From a virus (taxonomy: Duplodnaviria > Caudoviricetes): a DNA stretch of 64,000 bases. This document shows, in pieces, positions 3,653 to 40,622 of the stretch. The notes beneath the pieces are model-generated. The model saw only the letters and a program-made list of their open reading frames with translations. It was not told the DNA's origin and did not search any database. Where the stretch lies: positions 32,001 to 96,000 of IMG/VR virus record IMGVR_UViG_3300034053_000029. One strand, given 5' to 3'. Made by a program: the position numbers and the translations under genes. Every line of letters begins with the position of its first letter. The first letter of the stretch is position 1.

Positions 3653-4313
3653 TTAATCCTCGTCTACTATGTGAGCAGCAAGACCGGCAACAAGTTTAGC
3701 AAACGTCTTAGCATCAACCCAAGAAGCAACATCGTCGTACTCCATTTCACATAATCCGAAAATCTGCATCCACACTTGCTTAGTGACGAAGTTGCCATCT
3801 TTGTCGATGATGGCAACTTCGACGTTGTGGCTCACACCATTTTCGCAAGTATTGGTGCATTGAATTGCAACACCATTGGAAAAGCTCAAAGTCAAATCAC
3901 CAAAATCGATGGTACAGTTATTAACAAACTCGTTTGTGCGAATCTTAAACATTTTTGGTTTCTCCTACGAACACTACAGGACGATGCGGTAAGAAGTTAA
4001 TCGGATCAACACAGAGATTGCCATACATATCGGAACTGATATACATCTGAGTGTCGATGAACATATTGGCATTCATCCAACCATTACCAACGTGTGGTAC
4101 GTTCATCGTAATACGAGTAGCAACTGTAGGAGCGATTTTCATGATCATTGTCCGTAACCGTTAAGAAAGTTAAGCATATCGTGATCTAGCGTATCAAAAT
4201 CTGTAACCCCACACATTTCTAGAATGTGCATACTCCATGCATTATCTAGCAAGCTATATCTGGATGTATATTTGTTAAACATTTTGAACACTCATGTATC
4301 AGTCGATGAGTGA

Positions 4314-5094: not shown

Positions 5095-6741
5095 TTCTTC
5101 TCAACAGGAACACCAACAACTTTACAATGTTGATCCCTTGGCAACGATTTCTCGCATTCAGCAATAGCAGTTTTATATCTACTCACACTTGAATCGGCAA
5201 ATCCAAGTAGTAACATTAGCAAAATGACACCAGTAAACATACCAATGATGAATGCATAGCCATTGCTATTCAACATACCCAATCCTTTCCATAATTTCTT
5301 CCAGTGTCATCTTGCGTAGGTCATCTACATTGATGAATTGGTTATTCTTTACTTCTTCGTAAGCGAGTTTCTTACCTACTTCGAAACCAGTATTCCATCC
5401 GTCTTGTTTTGATTTACGATCCTCAGACGCTTCTGACCTAAGAAAGCGATGCGAACTAATCAAATTCTGAATGGTCATCTCCACCACGCCAAGTTCCTTG
5501 CGATATTCATCAAGTGCTTCCAACACTGGTCGAGAGTCCATTGCGTCGTAGTAGTAATCCTTATTCACCATTACTACATCGGCATTGCTGAATATTGCCG
5601 TAGGCGATATACCCTGATCGATATCCTTGAATGTTTGTAGGATCATTGTTTCGCTGTGTGGAATGTTCTTATTCGTCATCTTTATTGTCCTCGTATTTCC
5701 TTAGAAATCCTTCTTCATACAATCGTTCTTGCAACCAATCGGAATCTTCGCCTTCGTTAATCTCATTGGCACACGCATACCATCCTTCTGCAAAAATGTC
5801 TTTGATCTCTTGTAGAGTAACACCTCTGAGTATCATAAAGCCAGCCCTTTGACCACCAACAAGTGAGGCAGTAAAAGCGTCAAAACTTTCGTCAAGAGTT
5901 CGATGCGATTTCACGGGCAACTCCATTGCGGATTGATTGTAGAATTAGTGCTTCGGTATCAACTTTACTTTCATTGTTACAGTCATATTCGTTATACCAC
6001 CTGACTTCTTTTTCAGTGATCCACTCAGTCTTTTTCTTCTTGACTGAATCATACGAAGTGAATAAGCCAAAGAAACTTTTTCGCTTTTCTACTGTCCATC
6101 CTTTGAACTCTACTTCAAACTCGATATAACCGTTGTCCCACATTCGCCACTTGCCGGTTGGTTTGCATTCAGAATCGTCGACCCACTTACCCAACGGATA
6201 ATTGATCGTCCAATTTGGCATGCCAACATTTACATAAAATTCTGTGGTCATCATTTTACTCCTACTTTGTAATTTTGACCATTGAATTTAGCGGATAATC
6301 GTTCATATTCTGCACGTTCTCGTTGCAAGTTATCTTCAGCGACCTTACGTTCTTTCTCTACCTTTTCTTGCTCAAGTTTAGATGCCTTTTCATCGGCAAT
6401 CTTCTTAAGTCTTGCAATTTCATTATCACGGAGCACTTTGATTTCTTCAAACAATGCTTCATGGCTTTCAATAATATCATCAAATCCATCATCAGAACCA
6501 TAAGTATAGTTGTATGCATACTCCACGGGAGCACCGTTTATGAGAATGTCAAAGTCATAATCTGGTTCACGTCGATCATGCTCGTGTATATTTTTCCATT
6601 GAATTTGACCCCATCGTTTGGCAATGCTTTCTTTATTAAGATATGTCTCAAGAATAAAGTCTGCGCCCCATGAATCCATAACACCTCCTCGACATGTATC
6701 GACACCATCACGTTTGTATGCAATCAATGTAAATATTGTGG

Positions 6742-18792: not shown

Positions 18793-18865
18793 GATAAATA
18801 TCATGTAGCAACAAAAAATGCTAGTCACGAAGCGTCAACTTCTACTAGCCCTAGACATTCTAACA
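18793..18865 (+). promoter_or_regulatory. Late promoter plus structured leader, family A copy 1
   Basis: GATAAATA 18793-18800; GCTAGT-CAC-GAAG-CGTCAA-CTTC-T-ACTAGC-CCTAGA at 18820-18855. Confidence 0.75.
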
Positions 18866-18883
18866 TTTATCAAGGAGACAAAT

Positions 18884-19573
18884 ATGTCCAGCACTAGTAT
18901 TTATCAATTCAAACCTACATTTCTATACATCAAACAACATACCGTAACTGGTAAATTATACTTTGGTAAGACTACCAAGAATCCAGAAACATATCTTGGT
19001 AGTGGAAAATATTGGAGAAACCACATCAAGAAGCACGGAATAAAATATGTAATAAATTTGTGGTATTGTTTATTTTTAGACGAAAGCGATTGTAAGAATT
19101 TTGCATTATCTTTTTCTGAACAAAATGATATTGTTGAGTCGAGTATATGGGCAAATCTGATTAATGAGAATGTGTCTGGTGGTGGAAATATTGGAAAATT
19201 AAACGGAATGCACAAATCCAATAGAGATTACGATACCGATAAAGAAAAGAAGAGAATTAACAACATGAGAGCATCGAGAGCATTAGCATCAAAAGACCAA
19301 AATGTAAAATCATATTCTAGAGTCAAATCTGAAGAAGAACGTAAGAAGATTAGCGATAAAGCTAAACATCGATCTTTAGTAATATGTCCACATTGTGGCA
19401 AAGAATGTAATCAAATAAACGCAATTAGACATCATTTAGATAGATGCAAATCAAACCCAAATATATCAGAAGAAGATATGTTTATCAATAAGGTGACTAG
19501 AATACACGACAGAAAGTTAATGCAAATTGGTGGTTTTGCTGCTTGGATAAAGTGTAGCAAACATCTTCCTTAA
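18884..19573 (+). CDS. Seg-like GIY-YIG homing endonuclease
   Basis: FLYIKQH...LYFGKT, YLGSG; start MSSTSIY after AGGAG; antisense to neighbours. Confidence 0.85.
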   Translation: MSSTSIYQFKPTFLYIKQHTVTGKLYFGKTTKNPETYLGSGKYWRNHIKKHGIKYVINLWYCLFLDESDCKNFALSFSEQNDIVESSIWANLINENVSGGGNIGKLNGMHKSNRDYDTDKEKKRINNMRASRALASKDQNVKSYSRVKSEEERKKISDKAKHRSLVICPHCGKECNQINAIRHHLDRCKSNPNISEEDMFINKVTRIHDRKLMQIGGFAAWIKCSKHLP

Positions 19574-32275: not shown

Positions 32276-33088
32276 ATGAAAAATCAAACCTGCAAGCACT
32301 GCAATCAGACACTACCGAACCTTTCACCTAAGGTATTTTCTAACCACGTTAGGTGGTGTGATAAAAATCTGAATAGAAAGAAAGTAGGCCCAATTGGTAT
32401 AGCCAAAAGGGCAAAAACGATCAAACAGAATACTTTTAATAGAAAAATAATATTATGGAAAGAATATTACTTAACACCAAAAATATGTGTTGAATGTAAA
32501 AATGAAATTGATTGGTTTAGAAAAGACCAGATGTGTTGTTCTGCATCGTGTGCAGCAAAAGTTTCTAATAGAAATAAAACACCAGAACAAAAACACAAAG
32601 CAAAAAATTGTGGTAAATTGCTAGGCAGAAATAATAAAAAGGTTAAAGAACCAATTGCACCATATTCAAAAGTGTATAAGTGTACTTGTAAGGTATCTGG
32701 TATTGTTTGGTACAGTAAAACAGTAAAGCATATACACCCTAGTGTAACTGAAACTAAACAACAGTACTCATATCAATGTAGATTCAATTTCCAAATTAAA
32801 ACTTATTCTAATTGGTTTTATTATTCATCAGAGTTGATCAATCATTTTGGTTGGTATGCTGCCAAAAATAAAGGTGACAATCTAACCGGATGTTCTAGAG
32901 ATCACTTATACTCTGTAAATGACGGATTTATCAATAATGTTGATCCAAAAATAATTTCTCATCCAGCTAATTGTGAGATAAAACCACATAAACAAAATCA
33001 ATCCAAAGGCAGATCATCTTCAATAACTTTAACAGAATTGTTAGATAGAATTACAACTTTTGAAAATAAGTATGGGAGAGTGGTATGA
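32276..33088 (+). CDS. HNH-type homing endonuclease with Zn fingers
   Basis: CxxC motifs; SRDHLYS...HPANC...HKQNQSK; start trimmed to MKNQ. Confidence 0.78.
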   Translation: MKNQTCKHCNQTLPNLSPKVFSNHVRWCDKNLNRKKVGPIGIAKRAKTIKQNTFNRKIILWKEYYLTPKICVECKNEIDWFRKDQMCCSASCAAKVSNRNKTPEQKHKAKNCGKLLGRNNKKVKEPIAPYSKVYKCTCKVSGIVWYSKTVKHIHPSVTETKQQYSYQCRFNFQIKTYSNWFYYSSELINHFGWYAAKNKGDNLTGCSRDHLYSVNDGFINNVDPKIISHPANCEIKPHKQNQSKGRSSSITLTELLDRITTFENKYGRVV

Positions 33089-33147
33089 GAATCGAACTCA
33101 TTTGATTAGTTTTGCAGACTAACACCTAACCATTCGGACAACCACTC
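33074..33147 (-). tRNA. tRNA-Cys(GCA)
   Basis: GAGTGGT/ACCACTC acceptor stem, U73, loop CTGCAAA; encoded end is CCC, not CCA. Confidence 0.88.
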
Positions 33148-33188
33148 TCACATAATTACTCTAGTCATTCGGCCAACGTCATATTGTT

Positions 33189-33262
33189 TGGAAGGGGTAC
33201 TTGGAATCGAACCAAGTCTAATGCTGTCAAAGAGCATGGTGCAGCCAATACACTTTACCCCT
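33189..33262 (-). tRNA. tRNA-Gln(TTG)
   Basis: Cloverleaf, loop CTTTGAC, CCA. Confidence 0.9.
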
Positions 33263-33268
33263 ATTGTT

Positions 33269-33342
33269 TGGTGGGTCATGAAGGTACTGCCCCTTCGTCG
33301 ACTGGTTAAAAGCCAGATGTTCTACTATTGAACTAATGACCC
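33269..33342 (-). tRNA. tRNA-Lys(TTT)
   Basis: Loop CTTTTAA, atypical T loop GGCAGTA, CCA. Confidence 0.88.
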
Positions 33343-33918
33343 GAAATAGGCGAGTTTCATTTCTCCCTAAAGAAACTAATCCTCGATCTTCACTGTTATT
33401 CCACAGCATGGCAGACTAGCCACTGTTCCAATTAAAAGGGATAATGACAAGCGGAACATAATCTCTAGTTACTCGTCATTATTTTTCGCTCACGATTTTG
33501 CTCTCTACCACAAAGGGAGCGTGGTAGGCGAGGAAGCACCGAAGTTCTTATTTGCTAATATGTACCAATGCCCACAATGCTACGATTGGAGCAATGACCA
33601 ATCCAATTGCTATAATTCCACCGATCATGTGACTCTCCTATCGAAATAGCAGCAATGGAACTGCTGCACTTACCATAAACAATGCGACACCGTGTATCGC
33701 TAACCATAGACTGAATTTTAGTTCATCTACGACTTTATCAATCACGACGTGTATCCTTGATATCACGCATAATCATTGATTCTGCTAGTTGACGATGTGA
33801 GTGTGATTCAAACGTGGAAAGCCACTCTAGAAATTTAATAATTAAAGTCATGTAATGCTCCTAATGAAAGATAATATTTATGCTGCAATGCAGCACATTT
33901 CTCCTTCTCCAACCCTCA

Positions 33919-34443
33919 TTAGGATTTATTCAAACTAAGTTTCTGCGGCACTTTTAATGACGATTCTATTGCCCTAGAAAGTGGGACTTGTCTAACATAT
34001 TCATTACTTGCTTTGCGGTTATTCCACGGAACAAGATCATATTCTAATATTACGTTACTGTCAAGAACAACAGCACGAGTACAAAGATTATTCATCTGAA
34101 CGTATTTCACCAGAAAGTTATTAGCAAACTTGAATGGGACATTCTTAAATAGCTTTTGTTCTTTTTTCCAAAGACAATCTTTACGTTCAATGCAGTTGAT
34201 CGTTTTAAATGGAAAATCAATATCGCCTTTCCAATTTTCATGTCGCACTTCAACTTCCCATGCAGCAATAACTTTTTTATCAGCATTCAACGATAAAACA
34301 TCTATTCCAAATTTGTTAGGGTTCTCGATATGAAATGGGACATCTGTAATTCTATACTTCAATCTAGCAATCAGTGCATCTTTACCTTTTTTATCCCATT
34401 TATTGTGTTCTTCCTCATCGAATGGTTTTAATGATCCTATCAT
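33919..34443 (-). CDS. Hypothetical protein, possible PD-(D/E)XK fold
   Basis: GIDVL...WEVEVR; start trimmed to MIGSL because the longer ORF overlaps a tRNA. Confidence 0.6.
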   Translation of the reverse strand: MIGSLKPFDEEEHNKWDKKGKDALIARLKYRITDVPFHIENPNKFGIDVLSLNADKKVIAAWEVEVRHENWKGDIDFPFKTINCIERKDCLWKKEQKLFKNVPFKFANNFLVKYVQMNNLCTRAVVLDSNVILEYDLVPWNNRKASNEYVRQVPLSRAIESSLKVPQKLSLNKS

Positions 34444-34458
34444 ATGATCCTCATAAAA

Positions 34459-34553
34459 TGGTACTCCCGACTGGACTCGAACCAGTATCATCAGCCAATC
34501 TAGCCGCAATGCCGAGGTATAAGCTCGGAGTTTTACCGTTAAACTACAGGAGT
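34459..34553 (-). tRNA. tRNA-Ile(TAT) with long variable arm
   Basis: ACTCCTG/CGGGAGT acceptor stem, CCGAG-CTTATAC-CTCGG anticodon arm, about 25-nt extra arm, CCA. Confidence 0.82.
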
Positions 34554-34619
34554 ATTAAATAAAACTGGATACGCATAGTTGAGTAAAAGTCAATTGTGAT
34601 TGCTGTAGGTATCCAAAAC

Positions 34620-34696
34620 TGGTCGGAGATGAGAGATTCGAACTCCCGACATCTTGCTCCCAAAGCAAGCGGTCTACCAGACTGACCTAATCTCCG
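34620..34696 (-). tRNA. tRNA-Pro(TGG)
   Basis: Loop TTTGGGA, CCA. Confidence 0.92.
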
Positions 34697-34703
34697 ATAA
34701 TGC

Positions 34704-34778
34704 TGGCGCCCCCACACGGAATCGAACCATGAACTAGACTTTAGAAGAGTCCTGTTATATCCATTTAACTATAGGGAC
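34704..34778 (-). tRNA. tRNA-Arg(TCT)
   Basis: Loop CTTCTAA, CCA. Confidence 0.92.
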
Positions 34779-34785
34779 GAAATTC

Positions 34786-34864
34786 TGGCTCCGTATCTAG
34801 GGAACGATCCTAGCTAGTCAGTGATTAACAGTCACGCCCATGCACCAAGCTCGGGTTATACGGA
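34786..34864 (-). tRNA. tRNA-Asn(GTT)
   Basis: Loop CTGTTAA, G73, CCA. Confidence 0.9.
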
Positions 34865-34872
34865 ATTGTTAC

Positions 34873-34946
34873 TGGTGCCTATTGACGGAATCGAACCGCC
34901 ATAACAAGATTACAAATCTAGCGTAATACCATTATACGAAATAGGC
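34873..34946 (-). tRNA. tRNA-Thr(TGT)
   Basis: Loop TTTGTAA, CCA. Confidence 0.9.
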
Positions 34947-34953
34947 ATAAAAC

Positions 34954-35026
34954 TGGTTGCGACCACGGGAGTTGAACCCGCTTCCATCTTGGCTTATGAG
35001 GCCAGAGTCTACCACTAGAAGTCGCA
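34954..35026 (-). tRNA. tRNA-Met or Ile2 (CAT), short D arm
   Basis: Loop CTCATAA, TGCGACT/GGTCGCA acceptor stem, CCA. Confidence 0.8.
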
Positions 35027-35259
35027 ATTAATTAAAAGTATCTTGTCTTGGGTTTAAGGACACCATTTAATCCTCCTTACAGGTCTCTAGTAATCATCTA
35101 GCATAGCAAGGATATTGACAGTGACTTTGACAAGCAAGTTCGTTGATTAGACGATTTGTTCCCATACTTATTTAAACGGAATGACTTTTTGCTCCTTATT
35201 TTTATGTCCGGTAAGCAAACGGACTGCCATTAAATTGATTGCTGTAATCATTCCAAAAC

Positions 35260-35335
35260 TGGTGGAGACGGTCGGAATCAAACCGACCACAGAATCATTG
35301 CAAGTGATTCTCGCCCTCTTGGTACATTCGCCCCC
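35260..35335 (-). tRNA. tRNA-Ala(TGC)
   Basis: Loop CTTGCAA, G3:U70, CCA. Confidence 0.9.
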
Positions 35336-35393
35336 GTTATTTCTGTAACATATGCATAGTATATAGTGTCTGCATATTGAAGTCAAGTAATTT

Positions 35394-35476
35394 TGGTGGG
35401 ACAGGAGAGATTTGAACTCTCAAGCCGAAGCGTCTGAGCTTAAATCAGATGTGTTTGCCAATTTCACCACAGTCCC
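35394..35476 (-). tRNA. tRNA-Leu(TAA)
   Basis: Loop TTTAAGC, variable arm, CCA. Confidence 0.9.
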
Positions 35477-36229
35477 ATGTTCTTTAATTTGTTCAAGAAT
35501 ACCATCCCAATTAAATGATCTCTTATCTGAACTTAGTAATATTATTATGCTAACTCCAAGCTCTATTTCACAAAGATTAATTTTTTGTATTTGTAATTCT
35601 TGTATTTTGATTATTCTTTCGCTTCGTTCATTTGTAGATTTCTTACACCACATACTCTTTGGGTCTAAATAAACATTAAAATCTGGTAAATAAAAATCTG
35701 GTTCATACTTACGACCATCTGACAATACTAGTGGTGTTGGTCTCGACCACACAATTCTATTTTTATCCAATATATTAGCAACTTGCCATTCATGTATAGA
35801 TTCTAAATTAAACTTTAACCCAAATGAATCTATGTAAGGTATATAATTTCTTTTCCACCGTAATGTTGGATTTGCTGCTACTCCAGCTATACTTGGTTTC
35901 CATTTTCCAATGATGAACGATTCGTGTCGAGATTCTATTTGTTTTGATATACTTTGGTGAGTATCTTTTGTGTGCCCTTTACTCCAGTTCATCTTATCCT
36001 TAATTTCTTGAGGTAAGTTTTCATATCTTTGTTTGGCAGGTACTCTGCCACCATTTATATATGATTCTTTCGTACCTTTGCTATTTTTCTCTTTACATTT
36101 CGGACATTGTGTTGATCTAGGACTACACATCAAATTGCCAGATAAGTTTATATATTTTGCAATCTGATTACACCCATAATGACAAAGTTCTGCTGTTATT
36201 ATTTGTTCTGATTTTCTATGTTTTCCCAT
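35420..36229 (-). CDS. Putative homing endonuclease, PD-(D/E)XK type
   Basis: N-terminal CxxxC/CxxC; YEPDFYL...YLDPKS; start at MGKH after GAGG; C-terminus runs into tRNA-Leu. Confidence 0.78.
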   Translation of the reverse strand: MGKHRKSEQIITAELCHYGCNQIAKYINLSGNLMCSPRSTQCPKCKEKNSKGTKESYINGGRVPAKQRYENLPQEIKDKMNWSKGHTKDTHQSISKQIESRHESFIIGKWKPSIAGVAANPTLRWKRNYIPYIDSFGLKFNLESIHEWQVANILDKNRIVWSRPTPLVLSDGRKYEPDFYLPDFNVYLDPKSMWCKKSTNERSERIIKIQELQIQKINLCEIELGVSIIILLSSDKRSFNWDGILEQIKEHGTVVKLANTSDLSSDASA

Positions 36230-36301
36230 TTGTGCCTCGATGATAAATGTATACATATATTTATCATTTTACACTCTTGAGTATACCAATTATTTAAAAT
36301 C

Positions 36302-36375
36302 TGGTACTTCGTGATGGTTATGCTCCACCGTAGCCGCTTTATCAAAACGGTATTCTTCTATTGAATTAACGAAGC
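36302..36375 (-). tRNA. tRNA-Ile(GAT)
   Basis: Loop TTGATAA, CCA. Confidence 0.88.
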
Positions 36376-36383
36376 ATTATTAC

Positions 36384-36470
36384 TGGAGCAGGAGACAGGA
36401 ATCGAACCTGCTTACGGCTTTCGCCTTACTTGATTGGAAGTCAAGCGCCTAACCAATAGGCTACACCTGC
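36384..36470 (-). tRNA. tRNA-Gly(TCC) with long variable arm
   Basis: CTTGA-CTTCCAA-TCAAG, U73, extra arm GGC-GAAA-GCC, CCA. Confidence 0.85.
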
Positions 36471-36477
36471 ATAATTT

Positions 36478-36551
36478 TGGCGAGTCTGTAAGGAATTTAA
36501 CCCTATCCGCCGAGGTTGGAACTCGGAATGCTAACGTAACACTTCAGACCC
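36478..36551 (-). tRNA. tRNA-Trp(CCA)
   Basis: Loop TTCCAAC, G73, CCA. Confidence 0.88.
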
Positions 36552-36560
36552 ATATTGTTT

Positions 36561-36632
36561 TGGTGCCCAATGAAGGAGTCGAACCTTCTCAGTCGTGATT
36601 CGTATTCACAACGCCGTTCCGTCGGATTGGAC
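36561..36632 (-). tRNA. tRNA-Arg(ACG)
   Basis: Loop ATACGAA, short D arm, CCA. Confidence 0.82.
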
Positions 36633-36638
36633 TTTATT

Positions 36639-36714
36639 TGGTGCCGCCTCGTGGTTTCGATCCACGCTTTCCACCTTTTCAGGGTAGCACTTTCACCAGA
36701 TTAGTTTAAGCGGC
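36639..36714 (-). tRNA. tRNA-Phe(GAA)
   Basis: Loop CTGAAAA, CCA. Confidence 0.9.
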
Positions 36715-36721
36715 AATGATT

Positions 36722-36808
36722 TGGTGCGAGTGACAGGCATCGAACCTGTAAGACCGTTAAGTCGCTGACTTCTAAAGACAGTGTGTTTCCCAATTTCACC
36801 ACACTCGC
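36722..36808 (-). tRNA. tRNA-Leu(TAG)
   Basis: Loop TTTAGAA, variable arm, CCA. Confidence 0.9.
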
Positions 36809-36818
36809 ATTGTGTTAC

Positions 36819-36915
36819 TGGAGGAAAAGGTGAGATTCGAACTCACGGCCCACGGATGGTTACGGGACGCTGGTTTTCAAGACCAGAGCAATAAACCGGA
36901 CTCTGCCACTTTTCC
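36819..36915 (-). tRNA. tRNA-Ser(TGA)
   Basis: Loop CTTGAAA, long variable arm, CCA. Confidence 0.92.
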
Positions 36916-36925
36916 ATTGTGTTAC

Positions 36926-37015
36926 TGGCGGAAGAATGAGGTCACGATCCCCATGCCATATTTCAGGCACCTATCGTTTAGCAAACGATGCTGTCACCTT
37001 GACAATTAATCTTCC
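36926..37015 (-). tRNA. tRNA-Ser(GCT)
   Basis: Loop TTGCTAA, long variable arm, G73, CCA. Confidence 0.9.
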
Positions 37016-37024
37016 ATTTAATTT

Positions 37025-37100
37025 TGGTCAGAGTGGGGAATTACGATATCCCAACCTCCTGTATCCAAGACAGGCCGTCTTCCTTTGACAATACACTCAG
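37025..37100 (-). tRNA. tRNA-Pro(TGG), second divergent copy
   Basis: CCTGT-CTTGGAT-ACAGG, CCA. Confidence 0.82.
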
Positions 37101-37108
37101 ATAATTCT

Positions 37109-37183
37109 TGGTATCGCACTGGGGTTTCGATCCCCACTCACTAGTTTGAAGGACTAGTTGCCACGCCAGCTGCATCGTGCGAT
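37109..37183 (-). tRNA. tRNA-Glu(TTC)
   Basis: CTAGT-CCTTCAA-ACTAG (C at position 33), CCA. Confidence 0.8.
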
Positions 37184-37294
37184 GTATAAATTCTTGCTAT
37201 GTCCTTTTGCGAGGACTCTAGTTGTGGCTTGAGAGGCATCGTTCCTAGAATCGAGAGGCACTTCCACCAAACCGTAAAGCGACGGTCTGCATTT

Positions 37295-37369
37295 TGGCGA
37301 CACGGAAGGGAATCAAACCCTCATAAGTCTCCTAGACAGGGAGATGCATTATCAATCTGCCACCGTGCC
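37295..37369 (-). tRNA. tRNA-Asp(GTC)
   Basis: Loop CTGTCTA, G73, CCA. Confidence 0.9.
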
Positions 37370-37835: not shown

Positions 37836-37894
37836 GATAAATAATAATGCTAGTCACGAAGCGTCAACTTCTACTAGCCCTAGACATTCTAACA
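37836..37894 (+). promoter_or_regulatory. Late promoter plus structured leader, family A copy 3
   Basis: GATAAATA 37836-37843; 49 bp (37846-37894) identical to 18817-18865. Confidence 0.78.
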
Positions 37895-37912
37895 ACTTGA
37901 AAGGATCAAATT

Positions 37913-38743
37913 ATGTCCAGCACCAGTATTTATCCATCAACGAAGATCGTTCCTTATGTTTATAAGTTGACTCATAAAGTCACTAAACAATTTTACTTTG
38001 GTGTTAGGTTTAGTAAAAACCAAAAACTACCATCGCACATCGATTTAGGAACACATTATTTCACATCATCGAAATGCATCAAACAACTTGGTTTTGATAA
38101 CTTTGACACCGAAATCCTAGCAGAATTTCCTTTCGACGGCGGAAGAATTGATGCTTACTTACTTGAACAACAATTAATCGAAGAGAACTTCTCAAATTCA
38201 CTCATCTTGAATAAGAACATATCAAAAACCAATAAAGGTTCTTTTTACTTTTGGATGCACAAAGGATCAACTTGTCAAGCAATCTCAGATGCAAACAAAG
38301 GCAGGAAATTAAGAGATTATGATTACAAACATTCGCTAGAAAGTAAAAATAAAATTAGCGAAGGTGTTGGTCGTAAATGTTCTTGCATATTATGCAAAGT
38401 CGAACTATCATCAATTACATCACTTAAATCACACTTCAAAAGTTGTTTTGAAGATTGGGAATCGATGCAGTGTTTATTCCCAAACTTAAATCAAAAGAAA
38501 CATCTCATCAAACCAAAAAGAATTAAGTCGCCCAAAATTATAAAACAAAAGCGAATCAAAAAAGAATTTAACAACTGTTTAGAATGTCAATCTAAAGTAA
38601 ATCGTCGTTCTAAAAAGTTTTGTAATTCGTCTTGTGCAGCAAAATACAACAATAAACTAAGACCCAAAGGGCACGAATCAAGAATAAAAAGCAATGAATC
38701 GAGAATAAACAAATTAAAATCTAGGTGTGCGTCTAATCTCTAG
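37913..38743 (+). CDS. Seg-like GIY-YIG homing endonuclease
   Basis: PYVYKL...FYFGVR, YFTSS, C-terminal Zn motifs; starts MSSTSIY. Confidence 0.85.
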   Translation: MSSTSIYPSTKIVPYVYKLTHKVTKQFYFGVRFSKNQKLPSHIDLGTHYFTSSKCIKQLGFDNFDTEILAEFPFDGGRIDAYLLEQQLIEENFSNSLILNKNISKTNKGSFYFWMHKGSTCQAISDANKGRKLRDYDYKHSLESKNKISEGVGRKCSCILCKVELSSITSLKSHFKSCFEDWESMQCLFPNLNQKKHLIKPKRIKSPKIIKQKRIKKEFNNCLECQSKVNRRSKKFCNSSCAAKYNNKLRPKGHESRIKSNESRINKLKSRCASNL

Positions 38744-38995
38744 AAAATAAACACACACCTAAAATTTTAACAAGCAGACTTCTTTCCGACAATACTTTCA
38801 CATAATAAGGGACGACTCGAACGTCCATCGTCGGCTTGAGCGCCGATCTGCCTCCCAGCACTTATTCCACTACTGGCATCATCTTCGATCTGTCTTTTGC
38901 TTGTTGATCAGACAAGTGCTTTATCGTTCTTACCCAATCTCAGGCGACCGACTTGAACGGTGCATCGAACTATGTCGCTTCACAGCGAGATATTT

Positions 38996-39085
38996 TGGTG
39001 GGGCATGGACGGAATCGAACCTCTTGCCTAGAAGGACTGCGTTTACAGCGCAGCGGCGACACCAGTCTGCCCTTATTGCACACCC
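38996..39085 (-). tRNA. tRNA-Tyr(GTA)
   Basis: Loop CTGTAAA, variable arm, CCA. Confidence 0.9.
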
Positions 39086-39268
39086 CAAATTTATTAGCGG
39101 AGAAGTACCATCTTCTCCTTTCACCTGTACTCAGGATCACCTTTTGGGCGTGACATTAACTGTTTGGTAATGTTGCCTCAGTGGATACCAACCACCTTAC
39201 TAGAGGTTACAGTAGCATTGTCTACTCAACAATAACAGTCAAATTTATTACGCACTCTTTTGAATGCG

Positions 39269-39359
39269 GATTGTTAAGTATTCTTGAAAGAATCGAACTT
39301 TCGTCCTACCCGCCCCCTGCCGGAAAGCCTCAGACACCATTTAAGAACACTTAACAATC
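39269..39359 (-). ncRNA. tRNA-like small RNA with T arm and 17-bp closing stem
   Basis: GATTGTTAAGTGTTCTT / AAGAATACTTAACAATC; GAAAG-TTCGATT-CTTTC. Confidence 0.6.
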
Positions 39360-39531
39360 GGTGGCTCGATCACTCACACCACCTGATGTTTTCGATCTAT
39401 CTCCCACGATAGCTTCTCAACACCCTCCGACTTTTCACACCATGTTTTAAGTGCGGTGCCTGGCCTCGTTACCAGATAACTTAACACACTCTGCTACTGA
39501 GACTACATTTTATTCTACTTCTGAAACCTTG

Positions 39532-39648
39532 TCAATAACTATTTTGGTACTTCTCTTTCCGTTTGAAGGAACCCTTACCCTTCTTGGAACCAACAACACG
39601 CATCCGGTACTTTGGAGTGCGAAGGTCTTTAGCGATTGGGTTTTTCAT
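39532..39648 (-). CDS. arfA: ArfA-like alternative ribosome-rescue factor (38 aa)
   Basis: KNPIAKDLRTPKYRMRVVGSKKGKGSFKRK aligns by eye with the ArfA core [29 protein letters not shown]. Confidence 0.75.
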   Translation of the reverse strand: MKNPIAKDLRTPKYRMRVVGSKKGKGSFKRKEKYQNSY

Positions 39649-39803
39649 TTTACTTACCTTTAGCAAAAAGTGTATAACCAGAAACCCGTTGCAACACAAC
39701 CACCGCAAGCATATTATTAACACATTTCCACTCACGATGCACAGGATTAAAAACGTAGTATTTCATTTCCGTATTCCTCTTGTTGCGTCATTCGATGGAA
39801 CGA

Positions 39804-39852
39804 ATTTTACTCTCTTTTAAACTTTCGTCAACTACTTTCGTAAGTGACTGAT
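39804..39852 (-). promoter_or_regulatory. Early sigma70-type promoter cassette (copy 5)
   Basis: TTGACG-16-TAAAAT; CAACTACTTTCGTAAGTGACTGATT. Confidence 0.75.
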
Positions 39853-39859
39853 TTACAAA

Positions 39860-39890
39860 AGAAAAACCCGAAACTTTTTGGGTTTCGGGT
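39860..39890 (-). terminator. Intrinsic terminator
   Basis: ACCCGAAAC...GTTTCGGGT hairpin with adjacent plus-strand A tract. Confidence 0.7.
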
Positions 39891-40622
39891 CATCTTTGGT
39901 GCCACATTTTTTACTTTTAAGATGACCCTACATACAATCTCCCTGCTCGGAATACGCACGACCAAAGAGACTAACTGGCATTGGATTATGCCATAAGTTA
40001 GTTCTAATTGTAGTGGGTATGCGTTTCATTGGTCTTTTTATTCCTAAAAATTTATATGATTCTATTATACTTATATGGTATTTATGTAAATTGGGATTTC
40101 TCTTACAAACTGTTACAACTCTGGATGGAGTTCGTGATATAACCCGCACTACAGGGAATGTCTTTCACATTCAGTCATTGGCGACTTTTACCAATTAGCA
40201 GATAGTCTTTCCTACCAGTCAACCGTCTTTCCAGTTTGTCATCCACTTTTAGGATTTCTCCCTACTTATGATATTAGAATGTCTTTTTATTTTTGCAGAA
40301 TCCATCCAATTGTTTATTTATACTACCTGATTACTTGAGAACTGCAGACTTCATTCCACGATGACCACGCCAATGAATCTTTGCATTACCTGCCTTGGTG
40401 TATTCTACCTTGGAAACAGTTACGGTGCGTGGAAGATGAAGTTTCTCCTGAGTGCCGTTATCGTTAATGCGAGTTCCTGCAGGAATCATAACCTTTGATC
40501 CTTCGGAAATCATTGACTTGATGGTTTGGGTGGTTTGTGTTGTCTTCATATGTGATACCTTTCATAATAAATGTCGCAGTTTAAAAAGAAAGCTAGTTTG
40601 CGACATGACTAGCATTCGGAAA

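Follow-up and report, generated by a model that had tools for sequence, protein, structure and literature searches.

Can a phage peptide of 38 residues, ending at an ordinary stop codon, work as the ribosome rescue factor ArfA, which Escherichia coli makes from a non-stop mRNA? The question is raised by a short open reading frame (ORF) in the 64,000-nucleotide stretch of DNA analysed here (the window), which corresponds to bases 32001–96000 of a virus genome that is complete at 210,171 bp and carries direct terminal repeats. The phage is T4-like, as shown by a 448-bit match to the Gp23 capsid protein. The earlier note on this DNA had called a 38-aa ORF at this place, and we located its ATG and TGA on the minus strand. 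The gene, here named mini-arfA, and the features around it are collected in Table 1.

Table 1. Position of mini-arfA and of neighbouring features, in window coordinates
Feature	Position	Strand	Remarks
tRNA array	33073–37369	minus	12 tRNAs by ARAGORN, 14 by Rfam; downstream of mini-arfA
Homing-endonuclease gene	37913–38743	plus	weak NUMOD3 match; separates mini-arfA from the tRNA array
ORF-free region with tRNA-like folds	38750–39500	minus	richer in G+C
Class-II tRNA-Tyr(GUA)-like gene	39001–39085	minus	
Second sigma70-type promoter, TTGACA-17-TAAAAT	39507–39535	minus	11/12 matches; faces the tRNA-like RNA region
mini-arfA (P0001)	39532–39648	minus	38 aa; ATG at 39648, TGA at 39534–39532
Upstream 38-codon ORF	39650–39766	minus	good Shine-Dalgarno sequence, AAGAGGAA; stop one base before the mini-arfA ATG
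Repeated early-type promoter element (~70 nt), one copy	39794–39866	minus	repeat families D1–D3 and D8
Terminator-like hairpin	39865–39891	minus; readable on both strands	G+C-rich stem and T-run; closes the upstream unit

By sequence comparison, the ORF product is a true member of the ArfA family (PF03889), a minimal ArfA that we term mini-ArfA. An HMM search with the Pfam profile, which the earlier note had proposed as a check, gave 33.5 bits (E = 3e-8, profile positions 20–44 of 44) against a gathering score of 25.5, and a profile scan of the whole phage genome returned mini-arfA as its single PF03889 match. ArfA chains (5U4I, 5MDV, 5H5U) were the only matches of mini-ArfA in a phmmer search of PDB sequences; residues 3–36 align to residues 14–47 of E. 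coli ArfA with no gap, which bears out the claim that the ArfA core, KKGKGS included, is kept. BLASTP against ArfA of MG1655 showed 17/34 identities (E = 7e-9). Shuffle controls show that composition does not explain this match. The ungapped BLOSUM62 score was 77, compared with 23.4 ± 4.6 (maximum 45) in 3000 shuffles of the same residues, and the stretch ahead of the KKGKGS core outscored 19,999 of 20,000 in-register shuffles. All of the closest clusters in the ESM Atlas belong to PF03889, with lengths of 38–43 aa. NCBIfam returned no match, and PHROGs returned only weak matches to families of 'unknown function'.

KKGKGS occupies residues 22–27 and is followed by F-K-R-K-E-K, in alignment with K33–K44 of E. 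coli ArfA. Upstream of this motif, P12, Y14, R15, R17 and V18 correspond to P23, F25, R26, R28 and V29; these residues (with Y for F25 in the phage), KKGKGS and the basic R41/K42/K44 are common to mini-ArfA and E. coli ArfA (YhdL; PDB 5MDV, 5U4I, 5H5U, 5MGP, 7OJ0), its relative within the same Pfam family. Among 25 homologues, G24, K25, G26, S27 and R30 are invariant, and K13, Y14, R17 and V19 are conserved in at least 90%. The N-terminal motif formed by N3, A6, D8, L9, K13 and Y14 is conserved as strongly as GKGS, and alignments show the contact-equivalent positions to be invariant or nearly so across the family. ArfA residues 15–31 contact RF2, with F25 placed in a V198/F217 pocket (PMC6299226; contact roles also from PMC5378476). 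The equivalent central segment, a putative RF2-docking site with Y14 as its F25-type aromatic, is kept in mini-ArfA.

An ORF this short, whose 3′ end is overlapped by a promoter and whose opposite strand holds longer frames, might be no gene but a chance opening in a promoter-rich spacer. This reading is barely credible given a Pfam match above the cut-off, homologues numbering in the hundreds, and the pattern of substitution relative to the closest relative, which lies on a 20-kb IMG/VR contig (L006) and shares 79% amino acid identity. The two genes differ at 7, 5 and 24 first, second and third codon positions, respectively; 16 of the codon changes are synonymous and 8 non-synonymous. Their flanks cannot be aligned (29% and 21% identity). 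The Pfam match and the codon-position bias led us to exclude a chance ORF. The third-position bias and synonymous excess, set against flanks that fail to align, identify mini-arfA at the sequence level as a real coding gene under purifying selection. An AAGG lies 9 nt 5′ of its ATG, and the 25 homologues start within 1–4 residues of this position in the alignment, which favors the ATG at 39648 over a GTG at 39735.

The protein had been said to stop soon after its core, at a stop codon of its own, and to lack the C-terminal tail. Both statements hold: the TGA follows 11 residues after KKGKGS, and the last residue is the equivalent of E. coli ArfA residue 49. Mature E. coli ArfA has 52–55 aa (PMC3989591), and only 46–48 residues are ordered in the ribosome-bound form (PMC8012679). 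Folding of the phage mini-arfA mRNA gave no long helix (z = +0.09 and +0.92), and a terminator search found none inside mini-arfA or just past its end; the control fold of E. coli arfA mRNA recovered the known hairpin of roughly 20 bp inside the ORF. With its own TGA and no arfA-type hairpin or terminator, the gene lacks the non-stop design that allows repression by tmRNA. Mini-ArfA should escape the tmRNA control to which E. coli ArfA is subject, and the term 'constitutive', applied to it in the earlier note, is best taken to mean that tmRNA tagging does not gate it and that an early promoter drives its expression. A special meaning of the UGA stop was considered and rejected, as viral homologues end at TAA (39), TGA (28) or TAG (13).

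The N-terminus is also short. About 11 ArfA residues (1–11) are missing, Pfam positions 1–19 are unmatched, and 10 residues precede the profile-matched part in mini-ArfA versus 21 in E. coli ArfA. Cryo-EM has shown that a minidomain of E. coli ArfA, in which aa 2–16 become ordered, stabilises the open, active RF2; T7/K8 lie on h44, and A18 packs on I11 and C1914 (PMC5378476). This minidomain (aa 2–20: T7/K8, I11, A18, L19) is not conserved in mini-ArfA, where K7 aligns with A18. Of the three hydrophobic-patch residues in contact with W319 of RF2, two are likewise not kept: L19 aligns with D8 and L24 with K13.

These losses raise an alternative, in which the peptide would bind the empty mRNA channel and A site of stalled ribosomes and, without the minidomain, could not open RF2. 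Such a plug would compete with tmRNA-SmpB, ArfA or ArfB, and could spare unfinished phage proteins ssrA tagging or blunt a host response. Besides the missing N-terminal residues and unmatched profile positions, it is consistent with the behavior of the E. coli A18T variant, which binds with RF2 yet releases no peptide (PMC5378476), and with the occupation of the same channel by the tails of ArfA, SmpB and ArfB (PMC8012679). We nevertheless consider it unlikely. Conservation of the N-terminal motif to the same degree as GKGS suggests a partner contact, and ArfT of Francisella tularensis, which has 40 aa and its own stop codon, is a proven release factor-dependent rescue factor that works with RF1 or RF2 (PMC6299226). 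By analogy with ArfT, small size would be no obstacle to rescue by mini-ArfA.

Homologue searches, which used the 67-aa GTG-extended frame and alignments as query, placed the window protein in a wider family. They gave 466 matches among 5.8 billion proteins; of the 120 listed, nearly all have 36–57 aa and most carry PF03889, and several are named ArfA by JGI. An exhaustive search of representatives yielded 130 clusters, and at least 183 IMG/VR viral contigs carry a mini-ArfA relative. All 80 viral loci analysed have their own stop codon, at a median of 14 residues after GKGS and within 17 in 73 of them. When 80 Pelagibacteraceae loci are taken together with these, the stop lies 5–25 residues past GKGS in nearly all. 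We define the mini-ArfA subfamily by a length of 36–50 aa, the motifs N-x-x-A-x-D-L...K-Y-x-x-R-V-V...KKGKGS and a stop within ~17 residues of GKGS on its C-terminal side; the window protein, with its tail of 11 residues, belongs to it. As judged from these searches, the short, stop-bearing ArfA is a large family of phages and SAR11 chromosomes and not a peculiarity of this phage.

Several subtypes were seen, marked by an N-terminal KWDG(K/R)SR extension and/or a C-terminal EDGWSGIV tail, by tandem duplication or by loss of GKGS. Two metagenome ORFs, P0003 (82 aa) and P0007 (70 aa), hold two mini-ArfA units in one frame. Two close relatives (L206:5980–6105 and L207:1073–1228) keep NxVAKDLRTPKYRMRVV and have lost GKGS. 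The 86-aa gp18 of Pelagibacter phage HTVC115P (L002:2495–2755) starts with the mini-ArfA motif NPIAKELRTPKY, followed by KVV and a run of lysines; its C-terminal part is unrelated, acidic and without GKGS. Among cultured phages, megablast of the locus gave no match, and tblastn of the peptide against phages, with the low-complexity filter on, gave only partial matches, in HTVC115P and HTVC027P. A tblastn match inside a Roseobacter phage protein of 313 aa was dismissed as chance. The NrdJ-type reductase of the phage has its best matches, at about 60% identity, in Methylophilales, Pseudomonas and Vibrio phages.

A scan of genome collections returned more than 281 loci, and the best 80 are all from Pelagibacteraceae (SAR11), among them Pelagibacter ubique HIMB058 and a contig of 1.2 Mb. 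PF03889 was present in 96 of 151 sampled Pelagibacteraceae genomes, in one copy each. Among the best 80 of the >281 loci, the copies have 36–40 aa, and every one ends at its own stop 5–13 residues after GKGS. A winged-helix response-regulator gene lies directly 5′ of 71 of these 80 copies, which is a chromosomal context. The SAR11 gene usually overlaps the stop of the response-regulator gene (L086–L165; for example L138:2992–3111). The SAR11 proteins, called 'ribosome alternative rescue factor ArfA' by the NCBI and JGI pipelines, have the same short architecture and the same N-terminal and central motifs as the window protein, with 59–78% identity over the aligned part. They differ in being cellular and single-copy, whereas the phage clade is marked by a distinctive RMRVVG and a KEKY/H tail.

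In each of three SAR11 genomes, just two RF-1-domain genes were seen, both with frames of about 350 aa, one verified as RF2 and the other taken as RF1; none is ArfB-sized. The SAR11 RF2 keeps V198, F217 and W319. Together, the own stop codons, single copy, chromosomal context, absence of an ArfB-sized gene and retained RF2 residues suggest that the short form may be a working cellular back-up rescue factor in SAR11. The single chromosomal copy also weighs against the channel plug: where no ArfB-sized gene is seen, as in the three genomes examined, a gene that did nothing but inhibit rescue could hardly persist. A 2024 survey counted 0 arfA genes in 2,376 Alphaproteobacteria (PMC11633108), so the SAR11 genes seem to have been missed, and our literature search found no paper on them. 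The presence of the gene in SAR11, with no ArfB-sized gene in three genomes, bears on how trans-translation is backed up in the most abundant marine bacteria.

Comparison with known rescue systems places mini-ArfA closest to E. coli ArfA, and its expected mode of action would be the same, in that an empty mRNA channel is sensed and RF2 is recruited. The differences lie in length (38 aa compared with an ORF of 72 codons), in the N-terminal residues and L19 and L24 described above, and in the absence of both an RNase III/terminator hairpin and a dispensable hydrophobic tail, so that no tmRNA gating is expected. Unlike E. coli arfA, mini-arfA is carried by a phage, behind an early promoter. Two phage proteins have been labelled ArfA. 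Gp30 of Pelagibacter phage HTVC027P, highly expressed early and again late (PMC12753301), combines a PF03889-type core with a stop codon of its own 9 residues past a G(R)GS motif; at 58 aa, it carries an N-terminal KWDGRSR-type extension that the window protein lacks. The other is g10 of Citromicrobium phage RXM (PMC8953757). The hosts of HTVC027P and RXM are Alphaproteobacteria. In the literature, we found no paper on the stop codon, short N-terminus or activity of phage ArfA, gp30 and g10 being named in passing.

ArfT resembles mini-ArfA in its length of about 40 aa, its own stop codon, the lack of tmRNA-linked control and a basic KKGGS-type tail. As described in PMC6299226, on which this comparison relies, its tail reads KKGGSTNKK, and it has no F25-type aromatic and no detectable homology to ArfA. 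The window protein was not filed as ArfT because it belongs to PF03889. BrfA of Bacillus subtilis is also a small, RF2-dependent rescue factor; its sequence is unrelated to mini-ArfA and it is made, like E. coli ArfA, from non-stop mRNA (PMC6881298). ArfB and the RF-1-domain proteins of phrog_3122 share the rescue function and carry their own catalytic GGQ domain, needing no release factor, while mini-ArfA has no catalytic domain.

Our preferred reading, to which we give a probability of roughly 60%, is that mini-ArfA is an early-expressed, RF2-dependent rescue factor free of tmRNA gating. The peptide would be made early in infection from an ordinary stop-containing mRNA, with tmRNA neither tagging nor repressing it. 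Its basic C-terminal half would enter the mRNA channel left empty in ribosomes that have stalled at the 3′ ends of broken messages, its central segment PKY-RMRVV (corresponding to ArfA P23–V29, with the F25 aromatic) would dock on RF2, and RF2 would then release the peptide without a stop codon. This could add rescue capacity at a time when ribosomes would otherwise be locked up through phage-induced decay of mRNA or by host nucleases acting on mRNA or tRNA, and a place at the head of tRNA genes would fit a module that keeps translation running. Ribosome binding, activation of RF2 without the minidomain and a benefit to the phage are all steps that we infer. Counted against rescue through RF2 are the missing minidomain, the two missing residues of the W319 patch and the loss of GKGS in L206 and L207. 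Moreover, ArfA–RF2 pairs can be species-specific, with a heterologous pair trapped in an inactive state (cited in PMC5378476).

If the short form is active, a minimal ArfA of about 36–38 residues would be able to switch RF2 without the minidomain seen by cryo-EM, and control through non-stop mRNA would not be universal in the ArfA family. Ribosome rescue would also join tRNAs among the host functions supplied by aquatic phages themselves, and would be relevant to phage translation during mRNA shut-off or abortive-infection attack on mRNA or tRNA. Still more tentatively, and with doubt about the whole, mini-ArfA might be a distinct, tmRNA-independent branch of ArfA in which little more than a central docking strand and a channel tail activates the release factor. 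This branch would be the only protein back-up for rescue in SAR11, a role at odds with the picture of ArfA as exclusively beta- and gammaproteobacterial and always made from non-stop mRNA. Phages would have captured it repeatedly and, at the head of tRNA arrays in T4-like phages, it would form part of an early counter to host nucleases that stall ribosomes by cutting mRNA or tRNA anticodons.

The catalytic partner might differ from that of E. coli ArfA, with RF1 used as well as RF2, or with a GGQ-domain protein of the phage itself in their place. ArfT, a peptide of comparable length, can use either RF1 or RF2 (PMC6299226), the patch that contacts W319 of RF2 is only partly kept, and the same genome has an RF-1/GGQ-domain gene (phrog_3122) about 52 kb away. 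We regard another partner as quite improbable, since the aromatic for the RF2-specific V198/F217 pocket is conserved. As for the GGQ gene, it lacks RF domain 2, the docking site of ArfA, and can be read through only by a −1 shift in an A9 run. It is also missing from five other viral contigs with mini-ArfA, of which two have a completeness of at least 93%, and a general pairing of the two proteins was rejected on its absence from these five. The GGQ gene itself (L004:1456–1838, equal to G000:C1 19578–19960, minus strand, outside the window) is annotated 'RF-1 domain peptide chain release factor', and its Pfam RF-1 match of 33 bits is just below the cut-off. It is split into two frames right after GGQ, at the run of nine A; a protein of about 127 aa would result if the frames were joined by a −1 frameshift, by slippage of transcription or through an assembly error in the homopolymer.

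The earlier note had mini-arfA leading a tRNA operon. This is true in so far as the tRNA-like RNAs and the tRNA array lie downstream on the same strand, and no terminator was found between mini-arfA and the tRNA-like RNAs, which begin near 39500. However, these RNAs have a separate, stronger promoter, which probably supplies most of the transcription of the tRNA-like RNAs and tRNAs. The order of arfA followed by a tRNA array recurs in L006, with the array about 730 nt downstream, and in L206, where a Tyr-led array begins about 1.4 kb downstream. Overall, tRNAs occur downstream on the same strand in 13 of the 80 viral loci, in about five lineages. This recurrence is only suggestive.

The neighbourhood might also point to a diverged role, as a small basic RNA-binding peptide that processes or chaperones the neighbouring tRNAs or tRNA-like RNAs. 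The 13 viral loci with nearby tRNAs, always downstream on the same strand, would fit this, as would L206 and L245, and L206 and L207 retain the rest of the protein without GKGS. We think such a role very unlikely. No tRNA was seen in 67 of the 80 viral loci (at most 5–6 kb per side, often less) or in 78 of 80 metagenome loci (many on contigs of 1–2 kb), the SAR11 copies stand directly behind a response-regulator gene in 71 of 80 cases, and the conserved positions are those at which ArfA contacts the ribosome and RF2. The RF2-dependent rescue factor remains our preferred reading.

A few other elements near tRNA genes were observed. In L245, a 345-kb metagenome contig, an arfA-like ORF ends near 6100, and a CUA (amber-reading) tRNA follows about 500 nt on, at 6585–6660. 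In the window, a tRNA-sized element of 76 nt (35260–35335, minus strand) carries an encoded ACCA end and a good T-arm, and its acceptor stem, GGGGGCG, includes a G3-U70 pair. The element matches both ends of the tmRNA model at 24 bits, below the cut-off of 47, and neither ARAGORN nor Rfam at gathering score called a tRNA there; a weaker element of similar kind lies at 34954–35026. A tmRNA or SmpB partner encoded by the phage was rejected, as no SmpB match was found and the matches to the tmRNA model are sub-threshold and tRNA-sized. Two plus-strand endonuclease-like genes are preceded by leaders (18814–18908 and 37843–37937) that are 87% identical, start codons included; the second of these genes is the one at 37913–38743.

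That mini-arfA lies downstream of a copy of an early promoter, as had been claimed, is confirmed by a sigma70-type promoter, TTGACG-16-TAAAAT (−35 at 39831–39826, −10 at 39809–39804), inside the repeated ~70-nt element. At least six copies of this element are found in the window (near 4299, 9605, 15446, 20552, 22437, 39794 and 45986), and the exact promoter pattern was seen 3 times against 0.19 expected. An attenuator between promoter and mini-arfA was rejected, the interval holding no terminator or significant fold. Eighteen of the 20 amino acids occur in the product of the 38-codon ORF in this interval, which matches no family and lacks a conserved counterpart in L006. The stop of this ORF lies so near the mini-arfA ATG that translational coupling of the two is possible. 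At the other end of the gene, the second promoter is stronger than the upstream copy, and its −35 hexamer contains the mini-arfA stop codon. Ribosomes ending mini-arfA and RNA polymerase at this promoter would share the same few bases.
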